DNA from: a virus
Lineage: Duplodnaviria; Heunggongvirae; Uroviricota; Caudoviricetes
Length of the DNA: 6,312 nucleotides
Strand: one strand, 5' to 3'
Virus record (IMG/VR): IMGVR_UViG_2667527806_000009
This document shows, in pieces, positions 2,787 to 6,312 of this stretch. Numbering within the stretch: position 1 is the stretch's first letter; each line of letters opens with the position of its first letter. A program made the translations under genes and the position numbers. Below the pieces are notes generated by a model. That model saw only the letters and a list, made by a program, of their open reading frames with translations, had not been told where the DNA came from and made no database searches.

Positions 2787-2856
2787 CCGCCCTTTCGGGC
2801 GGTCTCCTGATGATTTGAGGGTGCAGAAATCCCTCCGGTTAAGGATTAAATTTTTA
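2787..2856. repeat. 70-bp structured direct repeat, copy 1 (abuts the N gap)
   Basis: Identical over all 70 nt to 3816-3885. Contains a GNRA-type hairpin (minus strand CCGCCC-GAAA-GGGCGG) and a second stem GAGGG..CCCTC. May extend into the N run. Confidence 0.9.
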
Positions 2857-2866
2857 NNNNNNNNNN
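2857..2866. other. Run of 10 N (unresolved sequence or scaffold gap)
   Basis: Ten ambiguous bases lie between the 70-bp repeat and the hok-B leader, where a hok-type CDS of about 180 bp would be expected. Confidence 0.95.
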
Positions 2867-2867
2867 T

Positions 2868-3014
2868 GTAAGAGGCTAACCTACATGTGCAAAGCATGAA
2901 ATTGGCCTCAGATTAATGTTAAGCGTCTTGCCGGACGCGTAATGTTAACTGGGGCTTTTCTCTATCTGCCTTTTGGTGTTCATGCCTGAAGCAGATAGCC
3001 TCAAGCACCCGCAG
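2868..3014 (-). promoter_or_regulatory. Second hok-type leader (hok-B) with mok-like start, truncated by the gap
   Basis: About 147 bp alignable to 741-886 at roughly 85-90% identity by eye. A mok-like ATG at 2895-2897 (minus) opens a frame (MLCTCRLASY...) that runs into the N gap. Confidence 0.6.
2887..2965 (+). ncRNA. Putative Sok-like antisense RNA (copy B)
   Basis: Homologous to the copy-A antisense segment, ending near GGGGCTTTTCTCT; the expected -35 region would fall in the N gap. Boundaries approximate. Confidence 0.3.
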
Positions 3015-3067
3015 TCATTCTACTTACCTCGCCAATATGAAATCAATCAGAAAGGTGCCCCATAAAA

Positions 3068-3754
3068 TCACTCCTTCTCTTCTTTACCGTAGTGGAGTTG
3101 ACCAATTTTGATAAGAGGGCGTCCCTGAGATTTGCGGTGTAGATTGGTATCGCGCAGAGAATACACACAGCCACAATATTCCTGCTGATAGAATTTTTCG
3201 CGCTTGCTGATTTCAATCATACGGGACGAGCCGCCCTGCTTGCGCCAGTTATAATCCCAGTACACCATGCCCGGATAATGCGCGACGGCTCGCCGCCCAC
3301 AGTCGTTAACCTGCTGCATATTTTTCCAGCGTGAAATGCCCAGTGAACTGCTGATCACACTGAAACCATTTTCAGCGGCGTACAGCGCTGTCCGCTCAAA
3401 ACGCATGTCAAAACACATGGTGCAACGGATCCCTCGTTCGGGCTCCCATTCCATTCCTTTGGCTCGTTCAAACCAGTTGTCTGTGTCGTAATCAGCATCA
3501 ATAAACGGCACGCCGTGTTGTTCAGCAAAGCGAATATTCTCATCCTTACGAATTAAATACTCTTTCTGAGGATGAATGTTCGGGTTGTAGAAAAAGATGG
3601 TGTAGTCGATTTCCGAGGCCTGAAGCGCCTCCATCACCTCACCGGAACATGGAGCACAGCAAGAGTGCAGTAGTAGTTTGTTTGCCCCGTTTGGGAGCTC
3701 CAATTTGGGCCGTTTGAAATCAGCAACTGTCATAAATATGTTTATTGAGGTCAT
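3068..3754 (-). CDS. queH: Epoxyqueuosine reductase QueH family protein (DUF208), 228 aa
   Basis: Translation carries the QueH/DUF208 signature Cys motifs: [11 protein letters not shown] near the N-terminus, [14 protein letters not shown], and C-terminal EYCGCVYS. No clear SD before the first ATG, so the exact start is uncertain. Confidence 0.8.
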
Positions 3755-3815
3755 AAAAATATCAAAGAGTGTAGCATTAGAACGGGGCTATCGGAAACAG
3801 ATGTGTGACTGCTCC

Positions 3816-3885
3816 CCGCCCTTTCGGGCGGTCTCCTGATGATTTGAGGGTGCAGAAATCCCTCCGGTTAAGGATTAAATTTTTA
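3816..3885. repeat. 70-bp structured direct repeat, copy 2
   Basis: Identical to 2787-2856, same orientation, offset 1029 bp. Sits in the intergenic space between the 3902 stop and the queH start. Confidence 0.9.
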
Positions 3886-3901
3886 ACAGTGCTAAATTTA
3901 A

Positions 3902-4258
3902 TTATTCAGTTCTGGATTTTGTCGCCCTGCGTATCCGCGCTTTCGCGTTACGCTCAATCTGTATCAGCTTTTCTATATTTCTCCGCCTTTCCTGTTCCTC
4001 CTGGCGCAATAGCCTTACATCATCTGCCAGTCTGGTTTCTCTTTTTGCCACAGAGAGCATCCAGTCAAACGGCTCCACAACCGCACCGCAGATTTTACAG
4101 CGGACCTGACGCTCTTTTTCGTCAACCCGTACAGAGGCGTGATGGCAATATGGTCTTTCCGATGGCTTATAAAGAAAATTAACCTGATTACGAGGGTCAT
4201 CCTCTTTTATCGGAAATAAAACGATATTGCTTAACTCATCTTCTGGTTTTATTTCCAT
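3902..4258 (-). CDS. Small putative zinc-ribbon protein, 118 aa (137 aa if started at 4315)
   Basis: CHH...CKICG Cys/His cluster and a basic, coiled-coil-like C-terminus. Preferred start is the ATG at 4256-4258, preceded by AAGGAG at 6-nt spacing; the alternative ATG at 4313-4315 abuts the upstream stop (TGAATG). Confidence 0.55.
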   Translation of the reverse strand: MEIKPEDELSNIVLFPIKEDDPRNQVNFLYKPSERPYCHHASVRVDEKERQVRCKICGAVVEPFDWMLSVAKRETRLADDVRLLRQEEQERRRNIEKLIQIERNAKARIRRATKSRTE

Positions 4259-4315
4259 GCTCCTCTCCTTTGATGCGAATGCCAGCGGTAATTGAAGCCT
4301 GATAGCTAATTTCAT

Positions 4316-4738
4316 TCACAGTATCGCCTCCTGAAAATTACCCTGATAGAAAGCCAGTACACGCTGCATAGCTTCGCTCTTCCGGCACTCGCGACAGATT
4401 ATATTCAGGCGCCTGTCGTAGCGGCGTATTTCTCCGTCAGGTAATGACCAGATAAGGTCCGGATCAACAACAACCGGTTTCCTCACCTTTACTCTCGAGA
4501 GTTTTTTGCGGGCGCTTTGCCAGTCCTTGCGAGCCTGTTCAGACGGGAATAAGCCGTAGCCAGAATTATATACATCACCACTTGCGACCAGTTCTATGCA
4601 TAAGCGACCGACAGACGCACGACTGATACCTGTTTCATCGGACAACTGCCGAATCGTGACCCGACCGTCCTGATGCACGAGTTCCACAATTCGCGTCTTC
4701 AGTTCTTCCCGCTGTTCGGGAGTAAAAGGTTTCGCCAT
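4316..4738 (-). CDS. Putative winged-helix/HTH DNA-binding protein with C-terminal CxxC, 140 aa
   Basis: AGGAGG upstream of the ATG. HTH-like segment (TIRQLSDETGISRASVGRL) and C-terminal CRECRK. No named family recognised. Confidence 0.7.
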   Translation of the reverse strand: MAKPFTPEQREELKTRIVELVHQDGRVTIRQLSDETGISRASVGRLCIELVASGDVYNSGYGLFPSEQARKDWQSARKKLSRVKVRKPVVVDPDLIWSLPDGEIRRYDRRLNIICRECRKSEAMQRVLAFYQGNFQEAIL

Positions 4739-4752
4739 AAATCCTCCTGAAA

Positions 4753-5499
4753 CTACTTAACAACCCTCGAATGGCTAACATTCGGACGCCAGCTCTCCCA
4801 GTTAAAATTCACCCAGCGCCCGCCGTTCATGACCATGCGATCCATCACCCGCTCGCCGAGAAGTGTATTCATCGCTGCATGGTTAATATTTGTCAGCATC
4901 CCCACACCGCGTAACGATGCCGTCCGGCGATCAACAATCTGGTTCAGTACCACCTGCTCGTTTTTCGTATCCCGCTGCATGCCAATTTCATCCAGGACCA
5001 GCAGGTCAACACCACAAAGCTCCTGTAAAAATTTTTCACCGGATTTGCCGTTGTCGTAGCTCTCATGCAACACGCTCATGACATCGGACACGGTGACGAT
5101 AATCACGCTACGCCCCTTCGCCATCAGCCGGTTGCCAATCGCGGCTGCAAGATGATTTTTTCCGGTGCCGGGCTTACCGCTGAACACAAAATTCGTACAG
5201 CCTGTCATCAGTTCGTCAGCTATGGATTTCGCCTGACTCAGTGCATGTCGCTGACCGTCGTTCTGCGCCCGGTAATTCGCAAACGAACACTTCCGGTGCA
5301 ACGGCTGGATGCCGGAGCGGTTCAGGATTTTTTCCACCCGCAACTGACGATTCAGGCGGTTGATCTCCTCGCAACGTTTCTGGCCTTCAGCAAGTTGCCA
5401 CTCGCGCCACTCCGCAACCGTTCTGAATGGGGCGGTTACATGTGGTGGGGTCAGTCTGCGGATACGCTCCAGAACGCCTCCTGTCGCAATATTTTTCAT
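4753..5499 (-). CDS. DnaC/IstB-like AAA+ helicase loader (phage replication protein P-type), 248 aa
   Basis: Walker A GKPGTGKNHLAAAIG and Walker B LLVLDEIG; positioned directly after the putative initiator, as in lambdoid replication modules with a DnaC-like loader (Rac ydaU/ydaV arrangement). Confidence 0.85.
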   Translation of the reverse strand: MKNIATGGVLERIRRLTPPHVTAPFRTVAEWREWQLAEGQKRCEEINRLNRQLRVEKILNRSGIQPLHRKCSFANYRAQNDGQRHALSQAKSIADELMTGCTNFVFSGKPGTGKNHLAAAIGNRLMAKGRSVIIVTVSDVMSVLHESYDNGKSGEKFLQELCGVDLLVLDEIGMQRDTKNEQVVLNQIVDRRTASLRGVGMLTNINHAAMNTLLGERVMDRMVMNGGRWVNFNWESWRPNVSHSRVVK

Positions 5500-5505
5500 G
5501 GTCTG

Positions 5506-6144
5506 TTACCCCCTGAAGCCTGGCGGGATCGCACTGTCCGGCAACGAGACGGTGTTAACCTGTCGGAGCAACGTCTCAGGCCGAACACCTTTCGGCGCGA
5601 ACAGGCCCTGGTATTCATTGGCGATGCTGTGTCGAATCACCTGCTCAGGTGTAAAACCCTGCTGACGGAATTTTTCCAGTTCCCGTATCGCCCCGTTAGC
5701 GCCCAGCTCCGTTCGAATCGGTTTTCGCAATGCCTGCCTGAACTGGACCCACTCATGCCAGAGTGTTTCTGACAACCAGTCGGGCAGATCAACTGACAAC
5801 GGGTCAAATTTTTTCTGGCGAACAGCCCCACCGATAACCAGAATTCCCTGCTCGGTGTGCCTTGCGATATCACTGCGCCGCAAGACACATATCCCGGTTT
5901 CAACAGCACCGATTTTGAGCAGTGATTTCTGTCGCGGAGAATTTCGGTCAAGCTCGATCCCACACCGGACACCGTTCCTGTCAGTCACGACGATATCAAT
6001 CCGCCCTCCGCAACCGTCACCACGCTCTGGCACCGGATACTCACGACAGACATCCAGGCCAGCAGCCTGCAACGCAACCACCGCAGAATTACAAAATTCC
6101 GCTGCAGTACCGCCAGATAATCTCCCCTCAAGCACTCCAGCCAC
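5506..6144 (-). CDS. Putative phage replication initiation protein (O-like/YdaU-type), 212 aa
   Basis: GTG start; it is the first ATG/GTG/TTG in a frame open back to 6289. Function inferred from its position upstream of the DnaC-like loader (6-nt gap) and a helical C-terminal domain; family not confirmed. Confidence 0.55.
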   Translation of the reverse strand: MAGVLEGRLSGGTAAEFCNSAVVALQAAGLDVCREYPVPERGDGCGGRIDIVVTDRNGVRCGIELDRNSPRQKSLLKIGAVETGICVLRRSDIARHTEQGILVIGGAVRQKKFDPLSVDLPDWLSETLWHEWVQFRQALRKPIRTELGANGAIRELEKFRQQGFTPEQVIRHSIANEYQGLFAPKGVRPETLLRQVNTVSLPDSAIPPGFRG

Positions 6145-6189
6145 AAAATCCCGAAACTCCCTTCCGGAAGGGAAGGGTTTGGGATGGGT

Positions 6190-6225
6190 TAGATCTGTTT
6201 TTAGATCTTTATCTGTATCTTTATT
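6190..6225. repeat. Cluster of short direct repeats (AGATCT x2, ATCTGT x2, ATCTTTAT x2)
   Basis: TTAGATCTGTTTTTAGATCTTTATCTGTATCTTTATT in the upstream region of the replication gene; function unknown (possible protein-binding sites). Confidence 0.3.
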
Positions 6226-6278
6226 AGTTGCCTTTGTGTTGGCATCTAGACTGGCCCCCTGAATCTCCAGACAACCAG

Positions 6279-6298
6279 TATCACTTATTTAAGTGATA
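6279..6298. promoter_or_regulatory. Operator-like inverted repeat (candidate CI/Cro-type repressor site)
   Basis: TATCACTTA-TT-TAAGTGATA: 9-bp perfect inverted arms around a 2-bp centre. TATCAC is the half-site core of lambda operators. Lies upstream of the replication operon at the window edge. Confidence 0.45.
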
Positions 6299-6312
6299 GT
6301 CTTAATACTAGT

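Follow-up and report, generated by a model that had tools for sequence, protein, structure and literature searches.

The DNA analysed here, referred to below as the window, is the whole 6312-nt stretch of the IMG/VR virus record IMGVR_UViG_2667527806_000009. Its minus strand carries an open reading frame of 228 aa (3068..3754, with an ATG start and the stop codon included) that an initial annotation, made from the sequence alone, had recognized as a homologue of the epoxyqueuosine reductase QueH carried as prophage cargo. The features on which the analysis draws are as follows.

2787..2856, no strand assigned: second copy of a 70-bp element, part of the other (DUF4014/HNH) prophage contig, matching loci L009 and L010
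2857..2866, no strand assigned: 10 consecutive N, probably where scaffolding joined two prophage contigs, with flanks that map to different prophages
2868..3023, minus strand: hok/sok leader directly 3′ of queH, cut off at the N gap, 84–90% identical to 741–895 and matched by Rfam RF01794
3068..3754, minus strand: longest queH open reading frame (open reading frame list and Pfam PF02677), with the probable true coding sequence at 3068–3733 (221 aa, start at M8)
3167..3175, minus strand: CGC motif (residues 194–196, with C194 and C196), aligned to the CGC of PDB entry 7lc5
3410..3427, minus strand: RCTMCF motif (residues 110–115, with C111 and C114), aligned to RCERCI of 7lc5
3647..3661, minus strand: CCAPC motif (residues 32–36, with C32, C33 and C36), aligned to C9, C10 and D13 of T. 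maritima QueH
3755..3810, minus strand: upstream sequence of about 55 nt that travels with queH, from the allele identity profile
3816..3885, hairpin CCGCCCGAAAGGGCGG on the minus strand: native 70-bp element, the 3′ flank of the phrog_1621 gene, found in both prophage types of FDAARGOS_944
3902..6144, minus strand: Rac/Qin-type replication module, upstream of queH and on the same strand (Pfam, NCBIfam and PHROG matches, and the RefSeq annotation of L001), made up of the next four genes
3902–4315, minus strand: phrog_1621 protein (PHROG)
4316–4738, minus strand: DUF977 YdaW-like protein (profile matches)
4753–5499, minus strand: DnaC-like loader YdaV (NCBIfam PRK12377, 507 bits)
5506–6144, minus strand: YdaU/DnaT-like initiator (profile matches)

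Membership of the protein in the QueH family is secure. The Pfam QueH profile PF02677 matched the open reading frame with 220.2 bits (E 2.6e-65) against a cut-off of 23.5, which is far beyond chance, and residues 27–201 correspond to profile positions 1–174 of 175, so that the match to DUF208/QueH is full length. A phmmer search of the PDB sequences returned only QueH of T. maritima (7lc5; residues 27–203, E 3e-22), and all seven cysteines (C32, C33, C36, C111, C114, C194 and C196) are present and aligned to that sequence. The three motifs also showed no variation in an alignment of 13 gammaproteobacterial QueH proteins. The Cys motifs reported earlier (CCAPC, RCxxCF and CGC) were thus found in place and withstood careful alignment, leaving the metal ligands intact. 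In the T. maritima structure, motifs of the form CCxP[C/D], RCxxC and CGC reportedly bind a [4Fe–4S] cluster and an adjacent iron, and the PDB also holds C9S and D13N mutant entries of that protein. The last position of the CCxPx motif was Cys in 110 and Asp in three of 114 family representatives, namely those among 150 diverse representatives in which the motif could be located, and Cys at this position is therefore the family norm.

An AlphaFold2 model of the window protein (pLDDT 77, pTM 0.77) adopts the QueH fold, with its adenine-nucleotide alpha-hydrolase-like Rossmann core. The five best PDB matches to the model were all T. maritima QueH entries (7lc7, 7lc5 and 9deu among them; E about 1e-12), with target-normalised TM-scores of 0.83–0.86, and the next fold followed at E 3e-5. 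A profile search of window positions 3071–3754 against NCBIfam release 20 gave no match to the QueH open reading frame; in view of the decisive evidence from Pfam, the PDB and the fold, this does not speak against membership. The RefSeq name of the protein, which is already "epoxyqueuosine reductase QueH", must accordingly stem from another type of rule. Elsewhere in the family, QueH is the C-terminal domain of much longer proteins in four representatives, P0125 (1398 aa), P0129 (761 aa), P0139 (824 aa) and P0057 (333 aa), and one of the long proteins also includes a ribosomal protein S21 domain. Either true multidomain architectures or fusions introduced by gene calling could account for such cases.

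The open reading frame given in the initial annotation is genuine, but its start is likely to be at 3733 and not at 3754. The RefSeq coding sequence (WP_012421537.1) has 221 aa and starts at the second ATG (3733, M8), and the chromosomal QueH homologues in the alignment start at the same position. Residues 1–7 differ non-synonymously among alleles, and past approximately 3722 the sequence is 99–100% conserved. On the strength of the RefSeq and homologue starts and of the allele variation in the preceding seven codons, queH probably begins at M8 and encodes 221 aa. No Shine–Dalgarno sequence was found ahead of either ATG (3754 or 3733).

Homology among queH-bearing loci reaches only about 55 nt upstream of 3754, and beyond approximately 3810 identity is at background. 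In this short segment, the sequence TGCTA[C/G]ACT (3776–3768; TGcTACACT in the window) was kept in 12 of 12 upstream variants. It is a candidate extended −10 element, with a weak −35-like sequence (TTCCGA, 3796–3791) at a spacing of 17 nt, and would put the transcription start near 3761. The candidate was derived from allele conservation; a consensus promoter scan (9-of-12) of the minus strand upstream of queH returned nothing and did not pick up TGcTACACT either. No terminator-like site was found by a scan from the queH stop codon to the hok/sok leader. Judged by its position, queH would be co-transcribed upon induction with the rest of the early rightward operon. It may be silent in lysogens, since it lies in that operon and has no Shine–Dalgarno sequence, consensus promoter or terminator.

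The genes at 3902..6144 are the replication module of Rac/Qin-type lambdoid prophages, and near-identical or related prophages carrying queH were found at several places. In FDAARGOS_944 (L001) the near-identical prophage lies near ybhA and the mod genes, in E. coli 042 the queH prophage adjoins trkG, and in an E. coli B derivative it carries dicB and dicC. The window contains two hok/sok loci that are 84–90% identical, one complete (558–895, with a mok/hok open reading frame at 558–770) and one truncated (2868–3023), and the Rfam sok model RF01794 matched at 708–882 (118 bits) and at 2844–3010 (92 bits). In most loci hok/sok follows queH directly, and a complete hok lies after queH in viral contig L094 and in the chromosomal loci L175–L182. 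The placement of queH between replication genes and a hok module, as first described, is therefore confirmed, and the element is a lambdoid prophage; however, the native hok is the truncated leader at 2868–3023, not the gene at 558–770. In E. coli O157:H7 (L012, Z1832) hok is replaced after queH by genes for a cytosine methyltransferase and an NgoMIV-family restriction endonuclease (2806–4816 of that locus), indicating that the slot following queH exchanges cargo. PADLOC gave no defence-system match for QueH or its immediate neighbours, and only generic HNH similarities for an unrelated HNH gene.

Two further observations concern other parts of the window. The longest HNH open reading frame (2195–2650, TTG start, 151 aa) overlaps the DUF4014 open reading frame (2562–2780) and is probably over-extended, as RefSeq annotates a shorter HNH gene of 366 nt. 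At the other end, the 66 nt at 6247–6312 are 100% identical to positions 193–258 of L014, a Shigella flexneri locus, in an orientation opposite to the rest of the alignment, a possible sign of local rearrangement or of a small repeat.

The initial annotation had viewed queH as a moron flanked by 70-bp repeats. Two copies of the element (2787–2856 and 3816–3885) are indeed present in the window and are 100% identical, but they do not constitute the signature of a moron cassette, as the lower copy directly abuts the run of 10 N (2857–2866) and belongs to another prophage. Window positions 2867–6312 are 99.94% identical to viral contig L094, in which queH is followed by a complete hok, whereas positions 68–2856 are 98.7% identical to a different prophage, present in FDAARGOS_944 (L009) and VL40 (L010). 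In FDAARGOS_944, the nearest complete genome, 718 kb separate this second prophage from the one with queH. Each of the two prophage types has one copy of the 70-mer, which forms the 3′ flank of a phrog_1621-type gene, and the cargo that comes after it differs. The element is found behind the phrog_1621 gene in several prophage types. Its hairpin CCGCCCGAAAGGGCGG has a GAAA loop, and as the element lacks a T-run there is no clear case for a terminator.

Most likely, two prophage contigs were joined during scaffolding to form the window. A query spanning the gap was matched with at least 80% coverage at just two places among 5426 complete E. coli genomes, and both proved to be two-piece matches made by the repeated 70-mer. 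The junction itself (70-mer, gap and hok leader) had no match in IMG/VR or in JGI metagenome contigs, and queH was found beside DUF4014/HNH in none of 80 viral loci (the best 80 of 191) and in none of eight loci with the exact protein. That the 10 N mask a genuine arrangement is less likely, given that no complete genome or viral locus has queH beside DUF4014/HNH. Such an arrangement would need illegitimate recombination to fuse the hok leader with the 70-mer at its start, and graph assemblers typically leave exact overlaps of this kind, here of 70 nt, at the ends of contigs. With a probable chimeric scaffold, the gene order across 2857–2866 is not to be trusted.

A different comparison bears on the accessory status of queH. 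The phrog_1621 gene and its 70-bp flank are followed by queH and hok in L001 and L094 and by DUF4014 and HNH in L009 and L010, so that cargo is present or absent between homologous flanks in related phages, as expected of a moron. The 70-mer does mark the boundary between a conserved replication module and a variable cargo slot, and it is reasonable to regard queH as accessory because related prophages hold other cargo at the same site. Its base composition is not deviant (GC 49%, against 48% for the window) and gives no signal of foreign origin.

The gene is common. DNA matching queH was detected in 995 of the 5426 complete E. coli genomes (approximately 18%), mostly at 95–99% identity and in 985 cases with at least 80% coverage. 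In these genomes it lies just downstream of a Rac/Qin-type replication module, a layout that recurs. IMG/VR holds 191 viral contigs with a relative of queH, the best 80 of them at 98% identity or more, and in the assembly collection 1448 indexed blocks contain the exact 221-aa protein. Among 50,697 phage records a single credible isolated phage with queH was found, HannyBb (PP925841, 33011–33697), where it is listed as a hypothetical protein; the other tblastn matches in the phage collection were mostly unannotated metagenomic fragments or very large "prophage" records and were not counted as credible phages. PHROG 3217, the family that matches this protein, carries the label "unknown function"; the profile covers residues 41–228 of the window protein, beginning past the CCAPC motif at 32–36. 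A survey of phages by Hutinet et al. in 2019 reported no homologues of QueA, QueG or QueH in the viruses analysed (PMC6884629). Our search of the literature on QueH/DUF208 in phage, prophage or lambdoid contexts found no paper on the E. coli prophage gene. Public databases already cover the family and name the protein, and what is gained here is the phage context, the rest being largely ordinary.

Close relatives of the window protein occur well beyond Escherichia. It shares 79–92% identity with the QueH proteins of numerous Enterobacterales and further Gammaproteobacteria, including Enterobacter hormaechei (92%), Scandinavium (91%), Kluyvera (90%), Erwinia (85%) and Providencia/Proteus (84–86%), with Photorhabdus also in this range. 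The alignment of 13 gammaproteobacterial sequences, which have the same length and start, contains 121 invariant columns, and no prophage-specific change was seen at conserved positions. The C-terminal tail (residues 204–222) is common to the whole gammaproteobacterial clade in this alignment.

The genomic contexts of these relatives differ from that of the prophage gene. Among 80 species-representative loci, lambdoid phage genes were found near queH only in Shigella flexneri and E. albertii; flanks of up to 6–8 kb contained no homologues of lambdoid phage genes at the 78 loci from species outside Escherichia/Shigella, nor at three added loci from Providencia, Photorhabdus and Ewingella. Five chromosomal contexts were inspected, none of which is a lambdoid prophage and four of which are plainly housekeeping. 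In Providencia, queH adjoins a gene for a TmcA-like tRNA acetyltransferase, and in Photorhabdus, Ewingella and Scandinavium it lies amid metabolic genes. The Enterobacter gene is found beside an integrase-domain open reading frame and acetoin-pathway genes. The simplest reading of these comparisons is that a chromosomal enterobacterial queH was captured by a lambdoid phage.

Within Escherichia-type loci the protein sequence is maintained. The 22 nucleotide alleles found at 86 such loci, a sample that leans toward the best-matching loci, encode nine protein variants without stop codons, with a pooled dN/dS of approximately 0.06 and a mean dS of approximately 0.10. The protein is under purifying selection by this measure, a constraint that linkage to hok is unable to impose. 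The exact allele is also intact in IS-riddled prophage remnants in chromosomes of 4.4–4.7 Mb, such as that of Shigella flexneri SFBU1023 (L014). In this locus and in L175–L182 (for example CP182555.1 and CP012137.1) the remnant is flanked and interrupted by IS elements; the stretch where ydaU/ydaV once lay is devoid of called genes, yet queH and hok have both survived intact.

E. coli has the full queuosine (Q) pathway (PMC5372724), and its QueG is cobalamin-dependent, requiring cobalamin together with two [4Fe–4S] clusters (PMC4646009). QueH has been described as an alternative to the cobamide-dependent QueG. It was reportedly validated by Zallot in 2017. E. coli does not synthesize B12 de novo. 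Both oQ (epoxyqueuosine) and Q have a cis-diol, so that APB gels may fail to resolve the two. With the K-12 gene as query, queG was found in 5426 of 5426 complete E. coli genomes, which bears out the earlier remark that E. coli normally uses QueG and means that queH is always a second, B12-independent route in this species.

We consider it probable (about 70%) that the window encodes a catalytically competent Fe–S QueH, captured from an Enterobacteriaceae chromosome, that reduces epoxyqueuosine (oQ) in host tRNA without B12. The protein most likely serves to turn epoxyqueuosine into queuosine in the tRNA of the host, independently of cobalamin. A lineage of Rac/Qin-type lambdoid phages would have acquired the chromosomal queH of some other Enterobacteriaceae species. 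In E. coli and Shigella the enzyme would then reduce oQ34 to Q34 in tRNA-Asp, tRNA-Asn, tRNA-His and tRNA-Tyr, the same step as that performed by the host QueG, and since QueH has no need of B12 the maturation of Q would be freed from the B12 supply. Expression would come either from read-through of the early rightward operon in lytic growth or from a weak promoter of its own in lysogens. We found no experiment on the window protein in the literature, and no phenotype that separates oQ-tRNA from Q-tRNA, so that the benefit of a second reductase stays putative. The neighbouring hok/sok addiction module could aid the retention of queH irrespective of any benefit.

Other explanations for the presence of the gene were weighed against this reading. 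An enzymatically intact queH might be physiologically irrelevant, with QueG sufficient for the cell and the gene kept by the adjacent hok/sok and by recombining prophage modules. The universal presence of queG in E. coli, the position of hok/sok directly after queH in most loci, the empty consensus promoter and terminator scans and the restriction of carriers to only about 18% of genomes all fit such a passenger, yet a dN/dS of about 0.06 over 22 alleles goes beyond what hok linkage explains. The O157:H7 strain moreover keeps queH with a restriction-modification system, not hok, downstream, and queH is intact in decayed remnants for which no replication-initiator or loader gene is called; on balance we regard neutral carriage as unlikely. 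It is quite improbable that the gene serves the phage only in lytic growth, with QueH expressed from the early operon and completing host tRNA Q for translation of phage genes at no benefit to the lysogen. The strand and position of queH, downstream of the replication genes, are those of lambdoid nin-region genes, an isolated phage (HannyBb) carries it, and queH prophages also carry tRNA genes. These tRNA genes are, however, not for Q-tRNAs, NAU codon use in the window genes is unremarkable (57%), and queH is intact in IS-disrupted remnants that are presumably non-inducible.

A role on another substrate, whether 7-deazaguanine in phage DNA, a free nucleobase or nucleoside, or a part in defence or counter-defence, appears very improbable. 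Phages are known to use preQ0-derived DNA bases (PMC6884629), and in relatives of the window prophage the variable region that follows the replication module also contains genes for restriction-modification and HNH proteins. No DpdA/TGT-like transglycosylase or preQ0-synthesis gene was found among the window proteins, though, in line with the initial annotation's statement that companion 7-deazaguanine DNA-modification genes are not visible in the window. The same holds for the RefSeq annotation of the 41-kb L001, which contains most of the near-identical prophage and includes no DpdA/TGT-like gene and no QueC, QueD, QueE or FolE. This lack of DpdA and preQ0 genes, together with the absence of a PADLOC match, argues against DNA modification or a known defence role, as do the 79–92% identity to housekeeping QueH without lineage-specific change at conserved positions and the 2019 survey, in which no QueA, QueG or QueH was found in the viruses analysed (PMC6884629). 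The suggestion that the protein acts on a 7-deazaguanine DNA substrate, made in the initial annotation, is thus without support, as is its repeat-based argument for a moron; what stands of that account is the identity of QueH and its prophage context.

A broader proposal, which we consider unlikely, is that a lineage of temperate phages carries out lysogenic conversion of the host tRNA epitranscriptome, with the B12-independent QueH maintaining full Q modification of tRNA under cobalamin shortage, as in the gut or within host cells, for instance. If true, the translation of NAU-rich genes would be shifted, and possibly virulence as well. Shigella flexneri offers an example, as the exact queH allele survives there in a decayed prophage and loss of tgt lowers VirF translation in this species (PMC10570037). 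QueH would also be the first documented case of a phage carrying an enzyme that acts in the tRNA-specific part of Q synthesis; the 2019 survey reported none in the viruses analysed (PMC6884629). Should the enzyme prove active, the last step of queuosine synthesis would need no B12 in about 18% of sequenced E. coli strains, in some Shigella and in derivatives of E. coli B, and strains without queH would depend on B12 for this step, a difference that bears on studies of tRNA modification and translation across laboratory strains and on B12 dependence in the gut. The wide distribution of a phage-borne, B12-independent enzyme for the final step of queuosine synthesis in tRNA, among hosts already equipped with QueG, is an unexplored point that no paper found in our literature search discusses, and the phage context is mildly interesting. 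Annotation of phage genomes also has a gap here, with PHROG 3217 labelled as of unknown function and the HannyBb copy as hypothetical. The gain is contextual and not conceptual, because the family, the chemistry and the protein name are already in public databases.

Comparison with known systems places the window gene among several types of relative. With QueH of T. maritima (7LC5, 7LC7 and 9DEU) the window protein has in common the full-length domain, the predicted fold and the CC..P.., RCxxC and CGC motifs, but the two are only 31% identical, Cys36 stands where T. maritima has Asp13, and the conserved C-terminal tail (residues 204–222) is found in the window and gammaproteobacterial proteins and not in that of T. 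maritima. The chromosomal QueH of Enterobacterales is near-identical to the window protein, with the same length and start; those copies show no lambdoid genes within flanks of up to 6–8 kb, and the contexts inspected are housekeeping or island-like in character, whereas the copies in Escherichia, Shigella and E. albertii are found in lambdoid prophages. Lambdoid morons and nin-region cargo such as hok/sok resemble queH in occurring variably at one fixed position behind the replication module and in the alternative cargo of sister prophages. They differ in that a promoter of its own is only a candidate for queH, a terminator was not found by the scan and the GC content (49% against 48%) is not distinct. 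Phage clusters of DpdA with FolE, QueD, QueE and QueC also represent phage-borne genes of the queuosine/archaeosine pathway, but they use the early (preQ0) steps and a DNA transglycosylase, while the window has only the last, tRNA-specific step and no DpdA. Closest in predicted function is QueG (yjeS of E. coli), which is co-resident in every E. coli genome and catalyses the same reaction as that predicted for QueH, from oQ-tRNA to Q-tRNA; QueG needs cobalamin, and QueH is the cobalamin-independent alternative.
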